From sequence record PZ386961.1: 64,000 nt of DNA; one strand, 5' to 3'. Below are positions 44,645-53,495 of the stretch, in pieces (the first letter of the stretch is position 1; every line of letters begins with the position of its first letter). The notes beneath the pieces were generated by a model. The model saw only the letters and a list, made by a program, of their open reading frames with translations, made no database searches and was not told where the DNA came from. This DNA is from a phage. The position numbers and the translations under genes were made by a program.

Positions 44645-46261
44645 TCAACGTCTAAGCCCCTCATATGGGTTTCCTCTCACTAAGTCTGTGTGAGCACCCA
44701 TTGATGGTGGCTTGAATAATTTAACTTCGTTAAGACTGTTGAAAGCATCACTGGTAGCATCCACTTGGTCATCTTTAGTTTTACCATCACCACAAAAACC
44801 TTCAAGTTCTTGAAAGTAAGCTTCGTTCCAACTACCTCTCAAGACTTTTACAAGTCCAGCTTCAGAAGCAGCAGAAAACCCCGCAAATCGGGTAACTTTG
44901 TCTTTATTTGTTGGTTTAGCTCTTGCTCGATAACCTTTCTCGGCAAGTTTCCTGATGAGGGATGTTGCGTAGGATTTACCAGCAGCGCCTGGGTCTTGAG
45001 GGATAAAAATACCAGTTCGCTTACCGTCACTTTCAGCAGTCAAATTAATTTGTGTTTCGACTCCAGAGGGTCTATCTCTAAATCTTACTACATCAATGAT
45101 ATAATAGCAACCGTCTTTTTTAGATTTACCCATCTTAACACCTGCTGTCCAGTCTGGATTAGGGTTAATCTCAGATGGTAAAGTTGCTGCTAAGTCCCAT
45201 GCTCTGACATCAAATACATCTTCTGGGAGTGAATCAACAATTTCACACCATTGTCTTTGCCAATAGTTTGAACCTTCTGCACGAGCCTTCCAGTTACCGA
45301 AACGAAGTCTTGCAACGTTTACAGGGGTGTTGTTTTCCAACTTACCACGATATTTAGGTTCTAGGAAGTCAAGAATTGGGTTATCATCAATCGTACCAGA
45401 GATGAATGTATATGTTTGAGGAATCTCAAGAGGAAACATTTCAAGAATCTTGTCTCTCTCCCAATCAGAAACCATCACACCATCGTTCATTACATACCAA
45501 CGAATACGACCACACTTTTCAGGGTCTGGATAACCTTCTTCATCTAAGAATGGCTCTACCCAATCGTAAATAAAGTGGTCTCTGTCTGGGTTCATAGAAA
45601 TCTTCATGTATGAATCACCTTCAGCACCAGAACGTAGACGGGTTTGTAGGTATGAAATCTGTGAAGCAGAGAAGTGTGTACCTTCGTCAAAGTAAATAGC
45701 TGAGTATTCAATACCCTGATGACCTTCAGCGTGCTTTTCAAGTTCTAGGTAGGTAAACTTGATAGTTGCCCCAGAAGGGAATGTGATAGTCATTTTCTGC
45801 TCGTGAGGAATCCCACCAAACTTACCAAATAGTTTCTTTGCAGCAGGCCATAAACCACCTTGTAGCTGTGTTGTATTTCGACGGAAATATACAGCATTAT
45901 AGTTAGGGTCTTCAATAAATCTTAAAGAGTCCATTAACAATGCAGCAGTTTTACCAGCACCAGCAGCACCACCATAAAGAACCAAGTCAGCATTAGTATT
46001 TAAAAAGACCTCTTGAGAACCCGGCTGAGGGGCTACATAATTCTTATCAGTCATCAATTTAAAGATAAGGCGAACTTGGTCTGGTGTGTATCTTAATAAA
46101 GTCAGAATTTGAGTTGGAAGGAATTTAGAGGGGTCTTTACCGAATGATTTGATAATTTCTTTTACTTCATCAGAAAGCCCCAACTCTCCAGCTAGGACTT
46201 TCCTAACATCTTCCACTCGCTTCTGCTTAACAGCATTTAAGTCCATTAAGCGCCTCCGCAA
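44645..46261 (-). CDS. terminase large subunit
   Basis: Walker A LYGGAAGAGKTAAL, C-terminal nuclease-like region; followed by portal. Confidence 0.85.
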   Translation of the reverse strand: MRRRLMDLNAVKQKRVEDVRKVLAGELGLSDEVKEIIKSFGKDPSKFLPTQILTLLRYTPDQVRLIFKLMTDKNYVAPQPGSQEVFLNTNADLVLYGGAAGAGKTAALLMDSLRFIEDPNYNAVYFRRNTTQLQGGLWPAAKKLFGKFGGIPHEQKMTITFPSGATIKFTYLELEKHAEGHQGIEYSAIYFDEGTHFSASQISYLQTRLRSGAEGDSYMKISMNPDRDHFIYDWVEPFLDEEGYPDPEKCGRIRWYVMNDGVMVSDWERDKILEMFPLEIPQTYTFISGTIDDNPILDFLEPKYRGKLENNTPVNVARLRFGNWKARAEGSNYWQRQWCEIVDSLPEDVFDVRAWDLAATLPSEINPNPDWTAGVKMGKSKKDGCYYIIDVVRFRDRPSGVETQINLTAESDGKRTGIFIPQDPGAAGKSYATSLIRKLAEKGYRARAKPTNKDKVTRFAGFSAASEAGLVKVLRGSWNEAYFQELEGFCGDGKTKDDQVDATSDAFNSLNEVKLFKPPSMGAHTDLVRGNPYEGLRR

Positions 46262-46267
46262 ATAGAA

Positions 46268-46468
46268 TTATTCAGAGTCTGTAGCAGTCTCTTCTTTCTT
46301 AACTTCGAACTTTGCATCAACAGCATCAAGAAGTGCATCCATAGATGCTTCTTTAATATCAATACCTGTTGCTACAGATAGTCTGTCTGCAATTGCCATG
46401 ATAGTATTCTGCATAAACTCTAACTTCTTGTTAGCTTCATAAAGTTCTTTATAAACGGTCTCGCTCAT
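46268..46468 (-). CDS. hypothetical small acidic protein upstream of terminase
   Basis: 66 aa. Confidence 0.4.
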   Translation of the reverse strand: MSETVYKELYEANKKLEFMQNTIMAIADRLSVATGIDIKEASMDALLDAVDAKFEVKKEETATDSE

Positions 46469-46504
46469 TATGTTTTCTCCAAATAGTTAACCATGTTTCC
46501 CCTT

Positions 46505-46528
46505 AAAAAAGACGGCACAGAGACCGTC
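46505..46528 (-). terminator. rho-independent terminator
   Basis: Stem gacgg/ccgtc followed by T6 on minus strand. Confidence 0.45.
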
Positions 46529-46593
46529 AAGGAGAAACCACAATGTACGTCAGAGACATACTGTATAAGTCTTCTTATAAAGTATAACTCTGT

Positions 46594-46653
46594 AAAAAAG
46601 CCCTGTCTAAAAATACTCTTCGGTAGCGAAAGGAAGAATACTTATAGCAGGGC
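46594..46653 (-). terminator. terminator-like long hairpin at 3' end of tRNA cluster
   Basis: Stem gccctg/cagggc enclosing nested hairpin, followed by T6 on minus strand, downstream of tRNA-Cys. Confidence 0.45.
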
Positions 46654-46690
46654 ATTATTATTATTTTAATTGAGAGAGAGTAAAATAACT

Positions 46691-46766
46691 TGGAGAATCC
46701 GAAGGGACTCGAACCCTTATAAACCTGTTTTGCAGACAGGCACATAGCCATTTCTGTCACGGATTC
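46691..46766 (-). tRNA. tRNA-Cys (anticodon GCA)
   Basis: Manual fold: acceptor gaatccg/cggattc, loop ctGCAaa, T-loop ttcgagt, discriminator U, encoded CCA. Confidence 0.75.
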
Positions 46767-46770
46767 AAAT

Positions 46771-46863
46771 TGGAGGAAGATACCAGACTTGAACTGGTAC
46801 ACCGATTTCTCAGCTACTGGCAGTTTAGCAAACTGCTCCCTTACCTTTTAGGGTTAATCTTCC
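46771..46863 (-). tRNA. tRNA-Ser (anticodon GCU), class II
   Basis: Manual fold: acceptor ggaagat/atcttcc, loop ttGCTaa, long variable arm, about 90 nt. Confidence 0.7.
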
Positions 46864-46865
46864 AT

Positions 46866-47600
46866 TTATTTCTGTAATGCGTTCTTCATTTCTGGTGTTG
46901 CAATAGTGTCAATTACACCAGTTTTACAAGCATCATCAAACCAGTCTGGTAAGATACCTGCTAAGAACCCATTGATATTCGTTTTAAGGTACTCTGCAAT
47001 AAGAGCAGCTTCTTCTTCAATCATCTGCACAACTTCATCTGCATAAGCTGTAATCTTTGAGATACCTTCATTAATCTTACTAACAGCTTGGTTAGCTAAA
47101 TCAGAAATAGTATCAAGACCTTTGTCAATAGCGTCTTGTAAGTCACTTAACACACCATTAACACCGTCTAGTGCACTGTTAATCGTATCAATAGCTTTTT
47201 GACCATACTCTGTAGCAACACCCATAATACCACTAAATGGTGTACAGCCAACTTGTTCACCTGCTGCACCCATAACATTAGAGTAACCTTTTGCTACCTG
47301 CATACGTGATGAAAACTCATCAATGGACTTTTGACCGTAATCTGTTAGTGTTTTGGTGGTTGATGTAGTGCTTGTCAGACTCGTGGTAAAGCTGTTAAGC
47401 AGAACTGTTGTAAGTCCAGCAGCAACAAGCTTATCCTTTACTGTAGGGTCTGATACAGAGCTAATAGAGCTTACAAGTGATGTAGAGGCAGCTACGGTTC
47501 CACCGAGAACTGCTGCACCAGTAATAAGGGGGTTAGAAAACCCTTTACCTGTTTTTAAGAGATTGAAAATCTCCTTACCTTGTTCTGTCATCTCTTTCAT
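46866..47600 (-). CDS. hypothetical Ser/Thr-rich protein embedded in tRNA cluster
   Basis: Start moved to ATG 47598-47600 because the track start (GTG 47663) overlaps a tRNA. Confidence 0.45.
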   Translation of the reverse strand: MKEMTEQGKEIFNLLKTGKGFSNPLITGAAVLGGTVAASTSLVSSISSVSDPTVKDKLVAAGLTTVLLNSFTTSLTSTTSTTKTLTDYGQKSIDEFSSRMQVAKGYSNVMGAAGEQVGCTPFSGIMGVATEYGQKAIDTINSALDGVNGVLSDLQDAIDKGLDTISDLANQAVSKINEGISKITAYADEVVQMIEEEAALIAEYLKTNINGFLAGILPDWFDDACKTGVIDTIATPEMKNALQK

Positions 47601-47616
47601 TAAGCACCTTTGAAAT

Positions 47617-47693
47617 TGGTAGTCCAGTGGGATTTGAACCCTCTTCTCATGTTTTTCAGACACGCGCTTTAACCATATAAGCTACTTGGACTA
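47617..47693 (-). tRNA. tRNA-Phe (anticodon GAA), non-canonical D-arm junction
   Basis: Manual fold: acceptor tagtcca/tggacta, loop ctGAAaa; extra nucleotides between acceptor and D-stem. Confidence 0.45.
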
Positions 47694-47698
47694 TAAAT

Positions 47699-47774
47699 TG
47701 GGGTGACCTACGGGATTTGAACCCGTATAGACCATGTTCACAGCATGGGTCATTACCATTTATGATAAGGCCAC
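47699..47774 (-). tRNA. tRNA-His (anticodon GUG)
   Basis: Manual fold: loop ctGTGaa, discriminator C, T-stem acggg/cccgt. Confidence 0.7.
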
Positions 47775-47805
47775 ATTTAAGGACTCTCGTAAGAATCCTT
47801 AGAAG

Positions 47806-47881
47806 TGGCAGCGGCATAAGGATTTGAACCTTAATAGGACAGCTTCAGAGACTGCTGCATTGCCAGTTATGCTATACCGCT
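47806..47881 (-). tRNA. tRNA-Gln (anticodon CUG)
   Basis: Manual fold: loop ctCTGaa, discriminator G, D-stem gcat/atgc. Confidence 0.65.
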
Positions 47882-47886
47882 AAATT

Positions 47887-47965
47887 TGGTACTCCATATC
47901 GGATTCGAACCGATACATAACACAGATTTTAAGTCTGGCCTCTCTGCCAATTGGAGTAATGGAGC
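47887..47965 (-). tRNA. class-I-like tRNA with leucine anticodon UAA (putative tRNA-Leu without long variable arm)
   Basis: Manual fold: loop ctTAAaa, discriminator A, T-loop ttcgaat, D-loop ccaattggcagag shared with the 48947 and 49526 tRNAs. Confidence 0.45.
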
Positions 47966-47967
47966 AT

Positions 47968-48043
47968 TGGCGGGGGATGTTGGAATTGAACCAACTTCTT
48001 CGATTTCAAAGACCGAGGTTTTAACCTTGTAAACTAATCCCCT
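47968..48043 (-). tRNA. tRNA-Gln (anticodon UUG)
   Basis: Manual fold: loop ctTTGaa, discriminator G, unpaired 1-72. Confidence 0.65.
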
Positions 48044-48051
48044 TTAAATCT

Positions 48052-48609
48052 TTACTTTCTCAGTGGATGAATAAAGAATGCCAACATAACTCTTTCCCTT
48101 GAGAATGCTCTTTCTTCTGGGACAACACTTTTAAGTTTCCATCCAACATAAATTCTCCAGTAAAACTGTTTACCGAAGACTTTAATTGATGGGATAAAAG
48201 CGAATAATCCCCAAGCATTACTGTTCCACATTAGGAGATAACCAGTCTGATTATCTTCAGGGTTAGAACTTACGTTGATATTACCTTTCCACTTAGTAAC
48301 ATCTCTTACATCTCTTCCTAATACATGGTAAGAGAAGTTATAAGCTTTGTTTCTCCAGAGCCATCCGACTCTTTGCATGTAGACACCTAGTTTACCAATC
48401 CATCTAATATTAGCCCATCTTTTAACGTGACCTTCATCACCATCAATTGGGTTGTCATATGTCTCCATCCATCTGAACCCGAAAGGTAAGTGTCCTTTCT
48501 TCTCACTGTAGAATGGAACTACAAAAGGTGCTAAGATAACTGCTAAGATTGCTGCAAATGGCTCTAACAAAGCTAAGAAAATCCATGAAGCATACTTTAA
48601 GTATCTCAT
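48052..48609 (-). CDS. hypothetical Trp-rich membrane protein embedded in tRNA cluster
   Basis: 185 aa, N-terminal hydrophobic helices. Confidence 0.5.
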   Translation of the reverse strand: MRYLKYASWIFLALLEPFAAILAVILAPFVVPFYSEKKGHLPFGFRWMETYDNPIDGDEGHVKRWANIRWIGKLGVYMQRVGWLWRNKAYNFSYHVLGRDVRDVTKWKGNINVSSNPEDNQTGYLLMWNSNAWGLFAFIPSIKVFGKQFYWRIYVGWKLKSVVPEERAFSRERVMLAFFIHPLRK

Positions 48610-48848
48610 TGTCTAATCCTCGTAAGGAGGTAAATGTTATTATTCGTTTCTAAACCTTCTGGTAAAACTGTCTCAAAAATAACACTCTTCAGATGTCTAC
48701 CACCAAAACAATCACGTATAAATCTTTCTACTCTAGCGTGGTCACATAAGTATCCCACTTTTAAGAAAATGTGGTGTTCAACACCAATGACCCTGACAAA
48801 CTCAATACTCTCACAGTTTTCATGTTCAACTACTGTTAATGTTTGCAT
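48606..48848 (-). CDS. hypothetical protein embedded in tRNA cluster
   Basis: 80 aa, ATGA coupling with downstream gene. Confidence 0.45.
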   Translation of the reverse strand: MQTLTVVEHENCESIEFVRVIGVEHHIFLKVGYLCDHARVERFIRDCFGGRHLKSVIFETVLPEGLETNNNIYLLTRIRQ

Positions 48849-48865
48849 AGTATCACCTTTTTATC

Positions 48866-48941
48866 TGGCGCAGGATAAGGGATTCGAACCCCTATTAACA
48901 GCTTCGTAGACTGTTGCTCTTTCCATTTGAACTAATCCTGC
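48866..48941 (-). tRNA. tRNA-Arg (anticodon ACG)
   Basis: Manual fold: acceptor gcaggat/atcctgc, loop ctACGaa. Confidence 0.7.
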
Positions 48942-48946
48942 AAAAT

Positions 48947-49024
48947 TGGTGTTCCAAGACGGATTCGAACCGTCACTAATACAAGGTTTGAGCTTGCATC
49001 CTCTGCCAATTGGGATACTGGAAC
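48947..49024 (-). tRNA. class-I-like tRNA with leucine anticodon CAA (putative tRNA-Leu without long variable arm)
   Basis: Manual fold: loop ctCAAac, discriminator A, paralogous D-arm to the 47887 and 49526 tRNAs. Confidence 0.45.
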
Positions 49025-49025
49025 A

Positions 49026-49100
49026 TGGTACTCACTAAAGGACTTGAACCTTTTTCTTCATCTTGTAAAGGTGATGTTTTACCATATAAACTAAGCGAGT
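49026..49100 (-). tRNA. tRNA-Val (anticodon UAC)
   Basis: Manual fold: loop ttTACaa, D-stem gttt/aaac, discriminator A. Confidence 0.65.
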
Positions 49101-49196
49101 ATGAAAGAGGTCTGAAGTTGTGCCGCTAACTCAACTTCGTGGAATTTGTTACGGTCTTCAGTTGACTCAAAGCGGTCTTTCACTTGACCTCTGAAT
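49101..49196 (-). other. structured non-tRNA spacer inside tRNA cluster
   Basis: Nested inverted repeats agaggtc...gacctct and gaagttg...caacttc; no T-arm. Confidence 0.3.
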
Positions 49197-49273
49197 TGGT
49201 GCTGCTCACAGGACTCGAACCTGCATTTCCATCCTTACAAGGGATGTGTAATAGCCAATTATACGAAAGCAGC
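49197..49273 (-). tRNA. tRNA-Thr (anticodon UGU)
   Basis: Manual fold: stem catcc/ggatg, loop ctTGTaa. Confidence 0.7.
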
Positions 49274-49279
49274 ATTGTT

Positions 49280-49354
49280 TGGAGCATCCAGAGGGAATCG
49301 AACCCTCAACCTCAGTTTGGAAGACTGTAATTTTCCCGTTTAAACTATGGATGC
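49280..49354 (-). tRNA. tRNA-Gly (anticodon UCC)
   Basis: Manual fold: loop ctTCCaa, discriminator U. Confidence 0.65.
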
Positions 49355-49360
49355 ACTAAT

Positions 49361-49436
49361 TGGTGGAGAAGCAGGGAATTGAACCCTGTACTTAAGTTTG
49401 CAAAACTTATGTTTTAACCATGTAAACTACATCCCC
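49361..49436 (-). tRNA. tRNA-Ala (anticodon UGC)
   Basis: Manual fold: loop ttTGCaa, G3-U70 wobble pair, discriminator A. Confidence 0.75.
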
Positions 49437-49442
49437 ATTGTT

Positions 49443-49518
49443 TGGTACAGGTGGAGGGAATTGAACCCATCGTCTTACTGATTAAGAGTCAGCCGCATAA
49501 CCATTTTGCTACACCTGC
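49443..49518 (-). tRNA. tRNA-Lys (anticodon CUU)
   Basis: Manual fold: loop ctCTTaa, discriminator A; imperfect T-stem shared with the 50741 paralog. Confidence 0.55.
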
Positions 49519-49525
49519 ATTAATT

Positions 49526-49602
49526 TGGTACACCTAGAGAGATTCGAACTCACACTGAGCAGATTCTAAGTCTGCTGCCTCTACCAGTTGGGCTATAGGT
49601 GC
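49526..49602 (-). tRNA. class-I-like tRNA with leucine anticodon UAG (putative tRNA-Leu without long variable arm)
   Basis: Manual fold: perfect stem gcaga/tctgc, loop ctTAGaa, discriminator A, about 74 nt. Confidence 0.5.
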
Positions 49603-49858
49603 ATTAAATCTTTTTAGAGAACTTCTAAGAACCTGAGCAACAAGGTTCCACAACAAGCGACTAATAACCTTAGAAGCCCTCTAAAAAGACCTAAATAGGT
49701 CTTTGCATAGTCTTGTTTAATCCGGTGACTAGAACCTTTGGAGAGCTTGATATTATCTCTTCTCCGTGACACCTACTAGGTGCTTTGACAGTGCACGACA
49801 ATACACGAGGGATAAACCGACAATGCGAACAAGCATGGACGGAGTAAATCTTATTAGG

Positions 49859-49946
49859 CGGTAAGTAAAGGAGTCGAACCCTCACCGTATCTCTACAGTG
49901 GCAACTGTTTTCAAGACAGTTTGGCTACCATTAGCCGCTACCTACC
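49859..49946 (-). tRNA. tRNA-Ser (anticodon UGA), class II
   Basis: Manual fold: loop ctTGAaa, long variable arm, 3-bp D-stem, discriminator G, CCA not encoded. Confidence 0.65.
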
Positions 49947-49959
49947 CCTAATAAGACTT

Positions 49960-50042
49960 TGGCATGGGACGGAGGAGTTGAACCCCTTTGAAACGGTGTT
50001 GGAAGCCGTTGCTCATGCCTTAGAGTCTTAACATCGTCCCAT
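49960..50042 (-). tRNA. tRNA-Trp-like (anticodon CCA), non-canonical (about 8 extra nt between acceptor and D-stem)
   Basis: Perfect acceptor atgggac/gtcccat, stem aacgg/ccgtt with ttCCAac loop, D-region too long for standard fold. Confidence 0.35.
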
Positions 50043-50184
50043 ACTATAATTCGAAGCTTACCGTATTATCTCAACACTGTAAAGCCCCTTCTCAGATTAT
50101 TTACATGTTCTGGAAAACATGAGATACAGACCACCTCCCTACAGGAAGACCCGCTTAGGTCGTCTAAGTAATCTGCTAACTATT

Positions 50185-50261
50185 TGGCACACCCTACAGG
50201 ATTCGAACCTGTAACTCAATGATTAGAAGTCATTTGCTCTGTCCAGTTGAACTAAGGGTGC
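50185..50261 (-). tRNA. tRNA-Arg (anticodon UCU)
   Basis: Manual fold: stem aatga/tcatt, loop ctTCTaa. Confidence 0.7.
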
Positions 50262-50463
50262 ATTAATCTTTAAAGACTCTCTTAGAAAGCCCTTAAAGAT
50301 GCCCACCTTATTAATCATACCGTGGGCGAGTACGCCAAATTCTTTGATGAGGGATTGGAAGACCTCACTGGTGTTTAGCCTATCAAGCTACTGCCAGAAA
50401 AACATTGTCGTTTGCATTTATTTTAAATTTGCAAAATAGACGCTACGCAACGAAAACTAAGGT

Positions 50464-50492
50464 TACTATAAAGTAGTCACATCTCAATGTCA
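50464..50492 (-). promoter_or_regulatory. sigma70-like promoter TTGACA-N17-TATAGT inside tRNA cluster
   Basis: Minus-strand hexamers read directly; faces tRNA-Arg(UCU) and downstream tRNAs. Confidence 0.5.
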
Positions 50493-50507
50493 ACAACTTT
50501 ATTGAAA

Positions 50508-50583
50508 TTGGTACTGGTAGGTGGAATCGAACCACCGATGTTCCCTTATCAGGGGAGTGTTATAACCTTCTTAACTATACCAG
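50508..50583 (-). tRNA. tRNA-Ile (anticodon GAU)
   Basis: Manual fold: loop ctGATaa, D-stem gtta/taac, discriminator A. Confidence 0.7.
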
Positions 50584-50584
50584 C

Positions 50585-50661
50585 TTGGAGGTTCAGATGG
50601 GAATCGAACCCACATTCATAGGGCTTATGAGACCCTTGCATTACCTTATCTGCGACTGAAC
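50585..50661 (-). tRNA. tRNA-Met (anticodon CAU)
   Basis: Manual fold: acceptor ggttcag/ctgaacc, loop ctCATaa. Confidence 0.6.
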
Positions 50662-50740
50662 CAGAATAAGTACCCTAGTTAGAGAAACTGTTGAGTGGGT
50701 GTTTCCAGCCGCGCAGGTGTTTCTCAGTTAAGGGTGAATT

Positions 50741-50816
50741 TGGTAGAAGTGGAGGGATTCGAACCCATCGCCTGTCAGATTAAAAGTCTGCCGCATCACC
50801 ATTCTGCTACACTTCC
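50741..50816 (-). tRNA. tRNA-Lys (anticodon UUU)
   Basis: Manual fold: loop ctTTTaa; sequence paralog of the 49443 tRNA. Confidence 0.55.
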
Positions 50817-50820
50817 ATTA

Positions 50821-50963
50821 AATTATCTTTGTAGATAAGCTACCCAGACTTGCTTAAGGTCTGTAGCGATGTGCCTTTTGGGTTTAAATCTAGAATTTAC
50901 CCTTTCACCCTTTGTGGTCGCATACTCACAGGTAAGCTTAATAACTTATCTACAAAGATAATT
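50821..50963. repeat. 19-bp perfect inverted repeat (aattatctttgtagataag / cttatctacaaagataatt) enclosing about 105 nt
   Basis: Both arms read directly at 50821-50839 and 50945-50963. Confidence 0.6.
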
Positions 50964-51017
50964 ACCAGACCGTTGTTTATCATCTTAAGTGCTACCATTA
51001 CACCAACTCGACATCTG

Positions 51018-51050
51018 CCGAGTGAAGGAATCGAACCTTCGCCTTTTCTT
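51018..51050 (-). other. isolated tRNA T-arm-like module (gaagg-ttcgatt-ccttc) followed by hairpin actcg/cgagt; tRNA fragment or tRNA-like ncRNA
   Basis: No matching 5' acceptor strand nearby. Confidence 0.3.
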
Positions 51051-51243
51051 TACCGGAGAAATAGATTGTTTAAAGTTTGCTGTAAACGGTCTTCTGTAAA
51101 TTTGTTGAGCCAGACCAAGTTTTAAATTTTCAAAATTAAATTGGCTTGAAATTTCATACATTCTTGCTGTATTTGGTCTTCTGCTCCTTTAAAGAATACT
51201 CGTAAGAACTCTTTAAGGGAGGGGCTAAATAGCCCTCTCAAAA

Positions 51244-51321
51244 TTGGCGGTTACGAAGGGATTTGAACCCTCATCATCTCCCGTGACAGGGGAGTATTTT
51301 AACCAAATTAAACTACATAAC
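51244..51321 (-). tRNA. tRNA-Asp (anticodon GUC)
   Basis: Manual fold: stem ctccc/gggag, loop ctGTCac, discriminator G. Confidence 0.7.
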
Positions 51322-51326
51322 CTTTA

Positions 51327-51414
51327 TTGGTGTGCCGTGTAGGAGTCGAACCTACCGAGTCTCAATGACAAGGGATTTACAGTCCCCACCGCTACCATCT
51401 ACGGGATAACGACA
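51327..51414 (-). tRNA. tRNA-Tyr (anticodon GUA), class II
   Basis: Manual fold: loop ctGTAaa, long variable arm, discriminator A. Confidence 0.65.
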
Positions 51415-51424
51415 CATTTAAATT

Positions 51425-51501
51425 TGGCGGTTAGTCAGGGATTCGAACCCTGTGCCATTCGCTTAACAGGCGACCGCACATACCTTATGTGCTTCCTAAC
51501 C
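51425..51501 (-). tRNA. tRNA-Asn (anticodon GUU)
   Basis: Manual fold: loop ctGTTaa, discriminator G. Confidence 0.65.
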
Positions 51502-51584
51502 ATGTTTAGTATTACCAGACCGTATCTTTCAATTTTTCCGCTAAAAATTTAATAAGTATTGCTGTAAACGGTCTTCTGTAAATT

Positions 51585-51660
51585 TGGAGGCGGGTGCAGG
51601 AGTCGAACCTGCCGATACCATGCTAATGAGACATGTGAGACGCCCTTTCTCTATACCCGC
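51585..51660 (-). tRNA. tRNA with CAU anticodon (initiator Met or Ile2-type)
   Basis: Manual fold: loop ctCATta, unpaired 1-72, D-stem gaga/tctc. Confidence 0.5.
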
Positions 51661-51752
51661 AATTCTTAATGACCAGACCAAATCTCTTCTTTGTCCGATT
51701 TACCTTCAGATGAATAAGATTAAGTTTGCTGTAATTGGTCTTCTGTCAAAAC

Positions 51753-51830
51753 TGGCGTTCCAGAAGGGATTTGAACCCTCAAATATCCACTTTGAAAGAG
51801 TGGTGACTTTACCATTTTGTCCACTGGAAC
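51753..51830 (-). tRNA. tRNA-Glu (anticodon UUC)
   Basis: Manual fold: stem ccact/agtgg, loop ctTTCaa, discriminator G. Confidence 0.7.
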
Positions 51831-51837
51831 ATTAATT

Positions 51838-51914
51838 TGGTCTCTGTTGGAGGACTTGAACCTCCGGCCTTACCGCCCCAAACGGAACGCTCTACCAAGC
51901 TGAGCTAAACAGAG
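51838..51914 (-). tRNA. tRNA-Pro (anticodon UGG)
   Basis: Manual fold: acceptor ctctgtt/aacagag, D-stem gctc/gagc, loop ttTGGgg. Confidence 0.65.
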
Positions 51915-52032
51915 ATAAACTTTTCAAACTCTATGTAACCACTTTAACATTATTTTTTAGTGGTTGTCAAGAACTTTTTTAAAATATTTTTCAGTATCTT
52001 AGAAAAGCTCTCATTTCGTTTCTATGTAGAAC

Positions 52033-52061
52033 ATATTAAAGGGTATTAAACACATTGTCAA
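52033..52061 (-). promoter_or_regulatory. sigma70-like promoter TTGACA-N17-TAATAT upstream of tRNA cluster
   Basis: Minus-strand hexamers read directly; about 110 nt upstream of tRNA-Pro. Confidence 0.5.
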
Positions 52062-52079
52062 TACCCTTTTTAAAACTTT

Positions 52080-53495
52080 TTACCAGATATAACGGTCAAT
52101 CATTACTGCTTTGAGCATTACACTGATTGGGTCAAACTTCTCACCACCAAGCAGAGCTTTTAAAGTGGCTGGAGAGAACCCTGATACCATTGCTACACCG
52201 TTATCCTTAATAGATACTTCGCAAGTGCCATTACGGTTTGCTAAGTACCAGAATACCAGTTGTGGCATCTCATATCCAGATTTTTCGTACTTATCTCGAA
52301 TTGCTTCAAAGTTTGTACGACCATTAGCACCATCAACCTGATTAAACTCCATATCAGAGAAGATAATAAGCTTACTTGGCATATCTTTCTGAGTCAAGTT
52401 GTTTCTTTTACCTGTTTCAAGAATGCGGTCAAAAGCTGCTTGTAAGTTAGTTGAGCCATATTCAACGTGTCGCATCACCTGACGATGACGGTTTCGTAAA
52501 TCACCACTCAGTTCGATGAAGTGAGGGTTTGTCGAATAAACCATCAACTCATTCTTAAAGCAACCTGTATTGCGTTCTGCTACATACAAGGCAAGTGATA
52601 CACCAATATCCAGAGCAGTAATGGAGCCAAAATTCACCCAAGACATTGAACTTGATACATCAGACATACACAAGATGTTTTCACCTTCTGCCATCCAGTT
52701 TGGTAGTGCTTTCCACTGCTCATTAGCAACATCTGCATTACCATACTTGACAGATTTAATCACATCGTATGGGTAAACAGCACCAGCGTTAATCTTAGTC
52801 TCACCTTTTGATAAGGACTCGATGTAAGCTTTGTAACGCTCTCCATCTTTACGGTTAAACAGTTTTTGGTAACGTGCAGCAGCAAGTGAAGGAATCTTAC
52901 TGTAGTCAATCTTACCAAACTCATTAGCAGAGATTTTTTGCTCAACTGTATCAGATAGTGCAGACAACAGTGTGCGGTACTCTTTCTCACTCAAGTTGGC
53001 AAACTTGCAGAAACGTTTTACAAACTGCTTATGACGTGGTTTGACTCGTGGTAACCACTTAGCCGCCAAACCTGCTGTTGCAGGGTCTAGTAATGCTGCT
53101 TCTAAATGCTTGAAGGCATCTGTCTCGAAACGAGTACCTACAAAGATTTTGAAGTCATCAAAACGACCAAGTTCTGCAATCTTATCCATAATGCGAAGAA
53201 CCTGCGTAGGCTCTAAAACTTTATCTTCAATTGCTTGAAGCAAAACAGTTCTGAAGGCTTTACGCTCACCCATACCTTCTCGTACATCTCGCATATGAAG
53301 CAAAATACGAACTGCAACATCAACATCCTCACGCAAAGCTTTGTAGAACAAGTCTGGTAAGATTTCTACATTGCTACGGCTTGAACCAGCAGCTTTGTAA
53401 AAGTCTACAAGAGCAGACATTGATGAAGTATGGTTTACAGCACCATTTTCAGTTCGACCTGCATGAAGGTGCGCATGTTTAAATAATTCGCTCAT
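52080..53495 (-). CDS. vWA-domain protein with helical N-terminal domain (Ro60/TROVE-like or DUF2828-like)
   Basis: C-terminal MIDAS motif in ILCMSDVSSSMSW (DxSxS) and downstream IIFSDMEF; N-terminal about 270 aa helical. Confidence 0.5.
   Translation of the reverse strand: MSELFKHAHLHAGRTENGAVNHTSSMSALVDFYKAAGSSRSNVEILPDLFYKALREDVDVAVRILLHMRDVREGMGERKAFRTVLLQAIEDKVLEPTQVLRIMDKIAELGRFDDFKIFVGTRFETDAFKHLEAALLDPATAGLAAKWLPRVKPRHKQFVKRFCKFANLSEKEYRTLLSALSDTVEQKISANEFGKIDYSKIPSLAAARYQKLFNRKDGERYKAYIESLSKGETKINAGAVYPYDVIKSVKYGNADVANEQWKALPNWMAEGENILCMSDVSSSMSWVNFGSITALDIGVSLALYVAERNTGCFKNELMVYSTNPHFIELSGDLRNRHRQVMRHVEYGSTNLQAAFDRILETGKRNNLTQKDMPSKLIIFSDMEFNQVDGANGRTNFEAIRDKYEKSGYEMPQLVFWYLANRNGTCEVSIKDNGVAMVSGFSPATLKALLGGEKFDPISVMLKAVMIDRYIW

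Follow-up and report, generated by a model that had tools for sequence, protein, structure and literature searches.

An inverted repeat in the tRNA cluster of a Felix O1-like phage as the terminal helix of a probable structured RNA, and its possible connection with a neighbouring Ro60-like gene

Why would a phage keep, between two of its tRNA genes, a perfect 19-bp inverted repeat enclosing about 105 nt? The repeat lies in a 64,000-nt stretch of sequence record PZ386961.1 (here called the window), which derives from a Felixounavirus, a Felix O1-like myophage whose best match is Escherichia phage MET-P1-301 (99%), and which carries 26 tRNA genes identified by ARAGORN, all of them on the minus strand. 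An earlier note, made from the sequence alone, had regarded a stem of this length as unlikely to be a chance occurrence and had offered two explanations, a long RNA hairpin (an RNase III site or small RNA) and a miniature mobile insertion of which the arms would be the terminal inverted repeats. Our analysis points with high confidence to the repeat being the terminal helix, P1, of a structured noncoding RNA of ~143 nt on the minus strand (50821–50963; hereafter the element). We further propose, with a probability that we place somewhat short of even (about 0.45), that this RNA works in a Y-RNA-like manner with a Ro60-like protein encoded at the same locus.

Structure and conservation of the element

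Our own scan of the window recovered the perfect 19-bp core at 50821–50839 and 50945–50963, between tRNA-Asp and tRNA-Lys(UUU), both on the minus strand, and inside the tRNA cluster as the earlier note had placed it. A repeat search returned slightly longer arms of 22 nt (50821–50842 and 50942–50963) that are 95% complementary and separated by 99 nt. The core is the longest inverted repeat in the window with a loop of 300 nt or less, and in 400 dinucleotide-preserving shuffles of the whole 64-kb window, searched under the same loop limit, the longest perfect inverted repeat was 16 bp and none reached 17, which bears out the judgement that a stem of this length is not expected by chance. The arm sequence occurs at just these two sites in the window, even when up to 3 mismatches are allowed. 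The sole mismatch between the 22-nt arms is a G.U pair in minus-strand RNA, and two further U.G pairs lengthen the minus-strand helix to 24 bp.

The element is conserved at a fixed position across a clade of phages. An 801-nt neighbourhood matches 295 phage records, among which 190 carry the form seen in the window (type 1, at least 94.8% identical) and 60 carry a second form at the same site (type 2; Mooglevirus, Suspvirus and some Felixounavirus such as BPSELC-1), the other matches being tRNA-only and located in unrelated phages. P1, hairpin H4 on the 3' side and the loop AUUCUAGAU are retained in type 2, whose interior is otherwise strongly diverged. About 250 Ounavirinae records each contain the element once, at the same site and always beside tRNA-Lys(UUU), and the arms were not found in unrelated contexts of related genomes. 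Pattern scans, both anchored on the flanks and independent of them, returned this locus only (26–27 loci in IMG/VR and 16 loci in metagenomes); the single pattern match in bacterial genomes (L051) was set aside as chance, as it falls in an unrelated region with no long inverted repeat.

More distant relatives extend this picture. Locus L052 (Yersinia phage P778) and loci L053–L056 encode Ro60-like homologues that are 53–63% identical to that of the window and share the gene order DUF5681, Ro60-like, tRNA block, DUF7217, terminase, and in all five a long-stemmed RNA lies directly 5' of tRNA-Lys(UUU), the helix in other lineages ending 0–10 nt ahead of the tRNA +1 position. A covariance model built from types 1 and 2 (R1) recovered L053 at 63 bits and L054 weakly, and a model built from 8 lineages (R2) scored six sites at 63–118 bits, comprising the window copy at 105.7 bits and homologues at the same site in L052–L056. 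Phage ESCO45 (L139, 690–930) keeps the element intact with a tRNA-Lys cut to its first ~23 nt and with tRNA-Met, tRNA-Ile, the interior of one neighbouring RNA module (module B, below), a second such module (module C) and tRNA-Asp deleted, which argues for a role of the element beyond the processing of its neighbours. In public records the element is unannotated, or an open reading frame (ORF) called 'hypothetical protein' is drawn across it. The RNA is undescribed so far and absent from Rfam, and our literature search found no description of it beyond a preprint's guess, discussed below, that Y RNAs exist in such phages.

The minus strand of the element folds with a minimum free energy of -48.3 kcal/mol (z -5.1) into the 24-bp helix P1, which is uninterrupted in the window copy, and a set of hairpins within it; the plus strand folds worse, and its centroid retains the stem alone. 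Patterns of substitution agree with this fold. In an alignment of 25 distinct type-1 and type-2 copies, 98% of P1 cells are paired and 4 pairs are altered on both sides. G.U or U.G pairs occupy alignment columns 23/135, 26/132, 20/138, 21/137, 9/149 and 75/85, and because each of them would turn into an A.C mismatch if the opposite strand were the RNA, or if the DNA formed a cruciform, they indicate selection on an RNA from the tRNA-coding strand. Across 8 lineages P1 measures 21–25 bp in all but one (7/8) despite differing arm sequences, and H4 is paired in 100% of 46 cells with every one of its 6 pairs altered on both sides, a score matched by 0/500 shuffles and compared with at most 41% pairing in slid alignments. 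The 8-lineage alignment as a whole is paired in 92.5% of cells, with compensatory changes in 14 of the 19 pairs tested, and again none of 500 shuffles was as good, slid controls reaching 35–47% pairing. RNAalifold applied to type 2 alone identified 5 pairs with compensatory changes. Variation within the element tracks helices, not codons. These compensatory changes, together with G.U pairs that fit the tRNA strand only and a conserved multi-hairpin core, support the long-hairpin or small-RNA alternative raised at the outset.

MAFFT gave no consistent alignment of the type-1 and type-2 interiors or of the distant lineages, so formal pair counts were restricted to P1 and H4, and the assessment of H1, H2 and the candidate pseudoknot was made by eye. 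The H1 loop is conserved in the forms GAGUAUGCG and AUGAGU, and the H1 stem UGUG/CACA of the window is replaced by GGGG/CCCC in L053 around the same loop, AGUAUGCGR. The lower stem of H2 covaries among type 2 copies, and in L025 an AA to GG change leaves H2 paired through G.U, which is possible on the minus strand alone. The apical loop of H2 contains a 6-nt palindrome in 6 of 7 lineages (UCUAGA, ACUAGU or AACGUU), L054 being the lineage without one. Complementarity between the J1 segment and the H4 loop suggests a candidate pseudoknot, which would pair as GCUUA:UAAGC in type 1 and L053 and as GCAA:UUGC in L056. For type 2 and L052 the pairing would be GCUAA:UUAGC, so that the two types differ by one compensatory switch (U-A to A-U), and L054 is also consistent.

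A Ro60-like gene and further RNA modules at the locus

The ORF 1.1 kb upstream of the element, on the same strand and just upstream of the promoters of the tRNA block, is assigned to Pfam DUF2828 and DUF7788 and to PHROG 850 'RNA-binding protein'. Its AlphaFold2 model (pLDDT 89, pTM 0.89) gives a Foldseek top 10 in the PDB made up entirely of Ro60 structures, matched over the full length at E about 1e-7 and TM 0.5–0.6 and including Thermus phage phiLo Ro60, Xenopus and human Ro60 and Deinococcus Rsr, and a phmmer search of the ORF against PDB sequences found nothing; as judged from the predicted model, the kinship with Ro60 is visible at the level of the fold only. The MIDAS motif of the vWA domain, DVSGSM, is invariant in the alignment of the protein, and more than 589 relatives are present in IMG/VR phage contigs of 4–327 kb. 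The homologue in Felixounavirus Bas63, gp130, has been described as Ro60-like and as countering the ppl defence system, and its authors suggest that some of the downstream 'tRNA genes' are Y RNAs, none being named (10.1101/2024.10.10.617714, preprint). In bacteria, Y RNA genes usually share a strand with the Ro60 gene and lie no more than 4 kb away from it (PMC4201824).

Two sigma-70-like promoter sites stand upstream of the tRNA block, just downstream of the Ro60-like gene (Table 1), and no minus-strand terminator-like site was found from these promoters down to the element. This arrangement makes it probable that the element is transcribed together with the phage tRNAs.

The same transcript would contain further candidate RNAs. 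Directly 5' of the element, module B resembles a circularly permuted tRNA, its acceptor stem closed by the tetraloop AGAU and its domain order that of YrlA (PMC4201824). After module B was re-permuted in silico, ARAGORN called a complete tRNA from the window copy and from those of 5 related phages; in its native order the module yields a sub-threshold Rfam tRNA match. The closed acceptor stem covaries between genera (ACUCGGC/GUCGAGU vs ACACGU/GCGUGU), and the anticodon-like loop differs among phages (CCGGUAA, CGGUAA, CUGGUAA, CUUAUAA). In two of the distant loci, ARAGORN places odd 'tRNA-???' genes directly after the Ro60-like gene (L055, 7607–7681; L056, 7598–7668); their anticodons measure 2 nt and 4 nt, and they may be further tRNA mimics.

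Module B also carries, at 51077–51084, the motif UACAGCAA, which recurs in three shorter modules, C, D and E. All four share a 5' signature, CAGAAGACC-NNW-UACAGCAA, paired with a downstream 3' signature, GGUCUGG, a combination for which 0.03 occurrences are expected by chance. Such a module generally opens with a short terminal stem and (C)UUACAGCAA, continues through a variable loop into the stem again and ends in CUG or CAG. This plan recurs directly beside Ro60-like genes in distant phages (L057, L058, L067, L081, L082, L097 and L124), in many cases as tandem copies and in some with a permuted tRNA-like sequence inserted. Over 75 IMG/VR loci, ACAGCAA is enriched 4–5 times on the Ro60-like strand within 2.5 kb of the gene. 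On this evidence from sequence, the stem modules with UACAGCAA are the most general candidate RNA partners of the Ro60-like protein. The H4 loop of the element, CUUAAGCAA, equals the module motif CUUACAGCAA (as in L081) minus one C, and its GCAA is invariant in all lineages, a likeness that hints at a shared ligand.

Table 1. Positions in the window of the element, its parts and the features around it.
Feature	Coordinates	Strand	Details
Element (A), ~143-nt structured noncoding RNA	50821–50963	-	P1 closing a multi-branch core; fold and covariance model
P1, 5' strand of the RNA (right arm), AAUUAUCUUUGUAGAUAAGUUAUU	50940–50963	-	24 bp with 50821–50844, including 3 G.U
P1, 3' strand of the RNA (left arm)	50821–50844	-	Stops 4 nt short of the tRNA-Lys 5' end
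H4 hairpin, CAGAC-CUUAAGCAA-GUCUG	50845–50863	-	Abuts the P1 3' strand; loop consensus CYUWWGCAA
H2 hairpin, GGGUAAAUUCUAGAUUUAAACCC	50880–50902	-	Palindromic loop core UCUAGA at 50889–50894
H1 hairpin region, CCUGUG-AGUAUGCGAC-CACAAAGG	50905–50935	-	Loop GAGUAUGCG conserved
J1 segment, GCUUA	50933–50937	-	Candidate pseudoknot partner of UAAGC in the H4 loop, 50852–50856
tRNA-Lys(UUU)	50741–50816	-	ARAGORN; Rfam tRNA 54.4 bits; immediately 3' of the element in the transcript
Module B, circularly permuted tRNA-like RNA	50961–51101	-	Directly 5' of the element; closed by stem AGACCGUU/AACGGUCU
Module B, anticodon-like hairpin	51045–51061	-	
Module B, T arm	51024–51040	-	
Module B, closed acceptor stem	51006–51023	-	
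Module B, D arm	50989–51003	-	
Module C, stem CAGAAGACCAA...UUGGUCUGG with UACAGCAA	51104–51192	-	
tRNA-Asp	51245–51322	-	ARAGORN
Module D, same stem and UACAGCAA plan	51509–51586	-	Between tRNA-Met and tRNA-Asn; Dicty_Class_I_RNA, weak (20.3 bits)
Module E, same stem and UACAGCAA plan	51668–51753	-	Between tRNA-Glu and tRNA-Met; Dicty_Class_I_RNA, weak (19.7 bits)
CAGAAGACC-NNW-UACAGCAA copies	51077–51096, 51164–51183, 51559–51578, 51726–51745	-	Paired with downstream GGUCUGG; between tRNAs
Sigma-70-like promoter, TTGACA-18-TAAAGT with TG	51941–51970	-	Upstream of the tRNA block
Second sigma-70-like promoter site	52033–52061	-	Upstream of the tRNA block
Ro60-like protein gene, 471 aa	52080–53495	-	DUF2828 and DUF7788; TROVE-like helical ring and vWA domain

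A Y-RNA-like role and the competing explanations

The reading that we favour places the element among the RNA partners of the Ro60-like protein. The RNA would be made with the tRNAs from the sigma-70-like promoters just downstream of the Ro60-like gene and would fold so that P1 closes the junction of H1 (loop GAGUAUGCG), H2 (palindrome UCUAGA) and H4 (loop CUUAAGCAA), and the H4 loop may also pair with J1. Since the helix ends 0–10 nt before the tRNA-Lys +1 position across lineages, an RNase P cut there would set the 3' end of the RNA, and in the window excision of tRNA-Lys(UUU), 4 nt downstream, is the most likely source of that end. P1 would then shield the ends of the RNA and may itself be trimmed by RNase III, cleavage of a stem of ~22 bp being plausible on sequence grounds; the conserved interior argues that the element is more than a cleavage site. 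In its mature form, the element would act as a Y-RNA-like subunit or partner of the Ro60-like protein beside module B and the stem modules with UACAGCAA, and the palindromic H2 loop could allow two copies to pair.

Several features of known Y RNAs are consistent with this proposal. YrlA and YrlB of Salmonella and mycobacteria and Yrl1 and Yrl2 of Thermus phage phiLo likewise lie within about 1.2 kb downstream of a Ro60-type gene on the same strand and measure ~100–150 nt, a large structured module inside them is closed by the long stem into which their ends pair, and the yrlBA arrangement, like that of the element and module B, sets an RNA in tandem with a tRNA-mimicking one. The element lies within 4 kb of the Ro60-like gene and on its strand both in the window and in L052–L056, and the stem formed by its ends is the covarying P1 of 21–25 bp found in 7 of 8 lineages. 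Unlike Y RNAs, the element shows no obvious bulged Ro-binding helix, P1 being continuous in the window, and it is embedded in a tRNA operon where it abuts tRNA-Lys; unlike in Y RNA systems, the candidate partner is a divergent DUF2828-type relative of Ro60 and not a member of Pfam TROVE.

A number of observations weigh against a Y-RNA-like role. The Ro-binding motif GNCGAAN0-1G, with its CGAA, is absent from the window copy, which has UGCGACC, and from type 2, which has GCCGAUG; CGAA appears in L055 and L056 only, which makes the motif unusable as support. At E<=10, neither Y_RNA (RF00019) nor YrlA (RF02553) of Rfam matches 50821–50963, Rfam searches at the same threshold over 46000–53000 and over 50800–51250 (451 nt) placed nothing on the element, their only nearby matches being the sub-threshold tRNA match of module B and the weak Dicty_Class_I_RNA matches of the neighbouring modules, and no Y_RNA or YrlA match at the gathering score was found in L052–L058. 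ARAGORN and Rfam detect no tRNA-like domain (T arm, closed acceptor stem, D arm) inside the element. It is the stem modules with UACAGCAA, and not the element, that follow the Ro60-like gene most widely, and model R2 has no match in 75 distant Ro60-like loci, so the element is specific to its clade and not a universal partner of the protein family. The distant loci in which it does occur were all picked for encoding a Ro60-like protein, and co-occurrence is not independent of that choice. Both the palindromic H2 loop and the resemblance of the H4 loop to the module motif were spotted after the fact, palindromes of 6 nt are common by chance (about 2.5 per 150 nt) and missing from the H2 loop of L054, and the candidate pseudoknot is not evident in L055. 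Co-transcription, processing and binding by the Ro60-like protein are, moreover, all inferred. As a separate matter, we considered whether the element might itself be a permuted tRNA like module B and rejected this, since the H2 loop UUCUAGA bears only a loose likeness to a T loop and nothing in the element corresponds to a D arm or acceptor stem.

Some of the same points would suit a structured RNA that acts in trans independently of the Ro60-like protein, whether as a decoy or inhibitor of a host nuclease, of a double-stranded-RNA-binding protein or of a defence factor, or as a regulatory RNA working through its conserved loops. In favour of this are the elaborate conserved structure with sequence-conserved loops, the lack of canonical Y RNA motifs, and the restriction of the element to one phage clade against a far more widespread Ro60-like protein. 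We nevertheless consider this explanation unlikely, because no candidate target was found and because constant synteny with the Ro60-like gene and the Y-like modules, along with the motif-like H4 loop, fits a Ro60 partner better.

Slightly lower still we rank a purely cis-acting element, an RNase III site or exonuclease block that governs the processing or stability of the flanking tRNAs and has no function as a free RNA. Good RNase III substrates span two helical turns, and P1 is held at about that length, 24 bp in the window and 21–25 bp in 7 of 8 lineages, against the about 20 bp or more of near-perfect double-stranded RNA that the enzyme's substrates present; the element, furthermore, always abuts tRNA-Lys(UUU). 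The R1.1-type RNase III sites of T7 are likewise stems of about two turns with few irregularities in a polycistronic phage transcript, but they are simple stem-loops with an internal loop, whereas the helix of the element closes a conserved core of three hairpins. Cleavage needs the helix alone, yet three hairpins with conserved loops and covarying stems have been kept across large evolutionary distances, ESCO45 retains the element despite its truncated tRNA-Lys and deleted upstream neighbours, and most other tRNA junctions of the operon have no such helix.

T4 offers a further comparison. Its species 1 and species 2 RNAs (rnaC and rnaD) are likewise structured, measure ~120–140 nt and lie in a phage tRNA cluster; they are stable, are matured with the tRNAs and have no known function. 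Species 1 RNA is cleaved by RNase III in vitro, a precedent on the side of cis-acting processing. Model R1 has no match in the T4 tRNA region (L049), the predicted folds differ, with rnaC ending in a T-arm-like hairpin that the element lacks, and the annotation of the 5-kb T4 tRNA region inspected lists no Ro60-like gene. Homology to rnaC or rnaD was accordingly rejected: there is no sequence or model similarity, and the genomic setting alone is analogous.

The remaining explanations are effectively excluded. A function at the level of DNA (a cruciform, a replication or recombination site, or the site of a dimeric protein) or as a small coding sequence could draw on the palindromic cores TCTAGA, AAGCTT and CTTAAG present in the DNA and on a 91-aa ORF with a TTG start (50850–51125, plus strand) that overlaps the element and is entered in some GenBank records as a 'hypothetical protein'. 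It is very improbable, as pairs possible only as G.U could not form on the plus strand or in a cruciform, where the helices would be imperfect, variation follows helices rather than codons, and indels of 1–2 nt in near-identical type-1 copies together with the different type-2 interior rule out coding. Least probable of all is the miniature mobile insertion (resembling a miniature inverted-repeat transposable element) put forward in the earlier note. The inverted arms of 19–22 nt, perfect over 19 bp and flanking ~100 nt, would suit it but are equally explained by an RNA helix, and homing endonuclease genes do move in the tRNA region of some relatives. Against it, the element is a single copy at one fixed site per genome with arms unique in the window, no empty site was seen in about 250 related records, the flanks (...CCATTA and ACCAGACC...) differ and form no target-site duplication, the arms diverge through compensatory changes and G.U pairs as RNA helices do, and the flank-independent pattern finds no copies elsewhere: in IMG/VR it recovers these loci again, and its single match among bacterial genomes is due to chance.

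The surrounding tRNA block and wider implications

The tRNA block around the element holds other features of its own. A near-consensus sigma-70 promoter (TTGACA-17-TATAGT; 50465–50493, minus strand) lies in the cluster just past tRNA-Ile, and its presence suggests that the cluster is divided into several transcription units. The 78-nt spacer between tRNA-Met and tRNA-Lys (50663–50740, minus strand) folds as a hairpin of -21 kcal/mol and is a presence/absence polymorphism, many Felixounaviruses being without it and having tRNA-Met and tRNA-Lys adjoining; a 36-nt piece of this spacer matches Yersinia phage P778 at 97%. A second long inverted repeat, imperfect (26 nt, 85% complementary, with a 39-nt loop), adjoins tRNA-Leu(UAG) at 49604–49694 and may represent another structured spacer RNA of the cluster. 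At the tRNA-Asp position some Felixounaviruses carry an inserted HNH homing-endonuclease gene together with a different tRNA (phage L27, L004, 877–1475; also SeKF_63, BPS17S6 and CRP22), which points to active gene shuffling within the tRNA block.

The modules beside the Ro60-like gene also resemble RNAs from a very different source. The Class I RNAs of Dictyostelium (RF01414), reported from Dictyostelia alone, share the layout of modules C–E and their distant relatives: the two ends meet in a short stem, (C)CUUACAGCAA lies next to its 5' strand, where the Dictyostelium RNAs have an 11-nt motif, and a variable loop and a 3' CUG complete the plan. Full-model matches to RF01414 were obtained at L081 (6430–6489) and in the window at 51516–51573, 51674–51740 and 50966–51091, with scores of 27.9, 20.3, 19.7 and 14.7 bits that are all below the gathering score of 41.5. 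In the element itself the motif-like sequence sits in a hairpin loop, as against its place beside the terminal stem in Class I RNAs. On present sequence comparisons, the likeness of the phage modules to Class I RNAs may reflect convergence or a real link to DUF2828-type proteins.

Taken to its full extent, the proposal would see in the element and modules B–E the RNA components of a Ro60-like ribonucleoprotein with which the phage counters bacterial defence. The element would then represent a new class of Y RNA, with a GCAA-type motif in a hairpin loop, a 3' end made by RNase P and a kissing-loop dimer formed through its palindrome, and the common signature of a stem with CUUACAGCAA would connect these phage RNAs to the Dictyostelium Class I RNAs. 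We put this fuller version forward tentatively and, as a whole, regard it as possible rather than probable.

Felix O1-like phages are in wide use, in typing, in biocontrol and in the BASEL collection, and the RNA partners of their defence-countering Ro60-like gene have so far been merely guessed at among the 'tRNA genes'. Coordinates and structures are now at hand for three kinds of candidate, namely the ~143-nt RNA, a YrlA-like permuted tRNA mimic and the stem module with UACAGCAA that is found beside Ro60-like genes of many unrelated phages as well, so that which RNAs the phage Ro60 uses, and how it uses them, becomes directly testable. Should the link to the Class I motif prove true, it would also provide the first functional handle on an orphan class of Dictyostelium RNAs.

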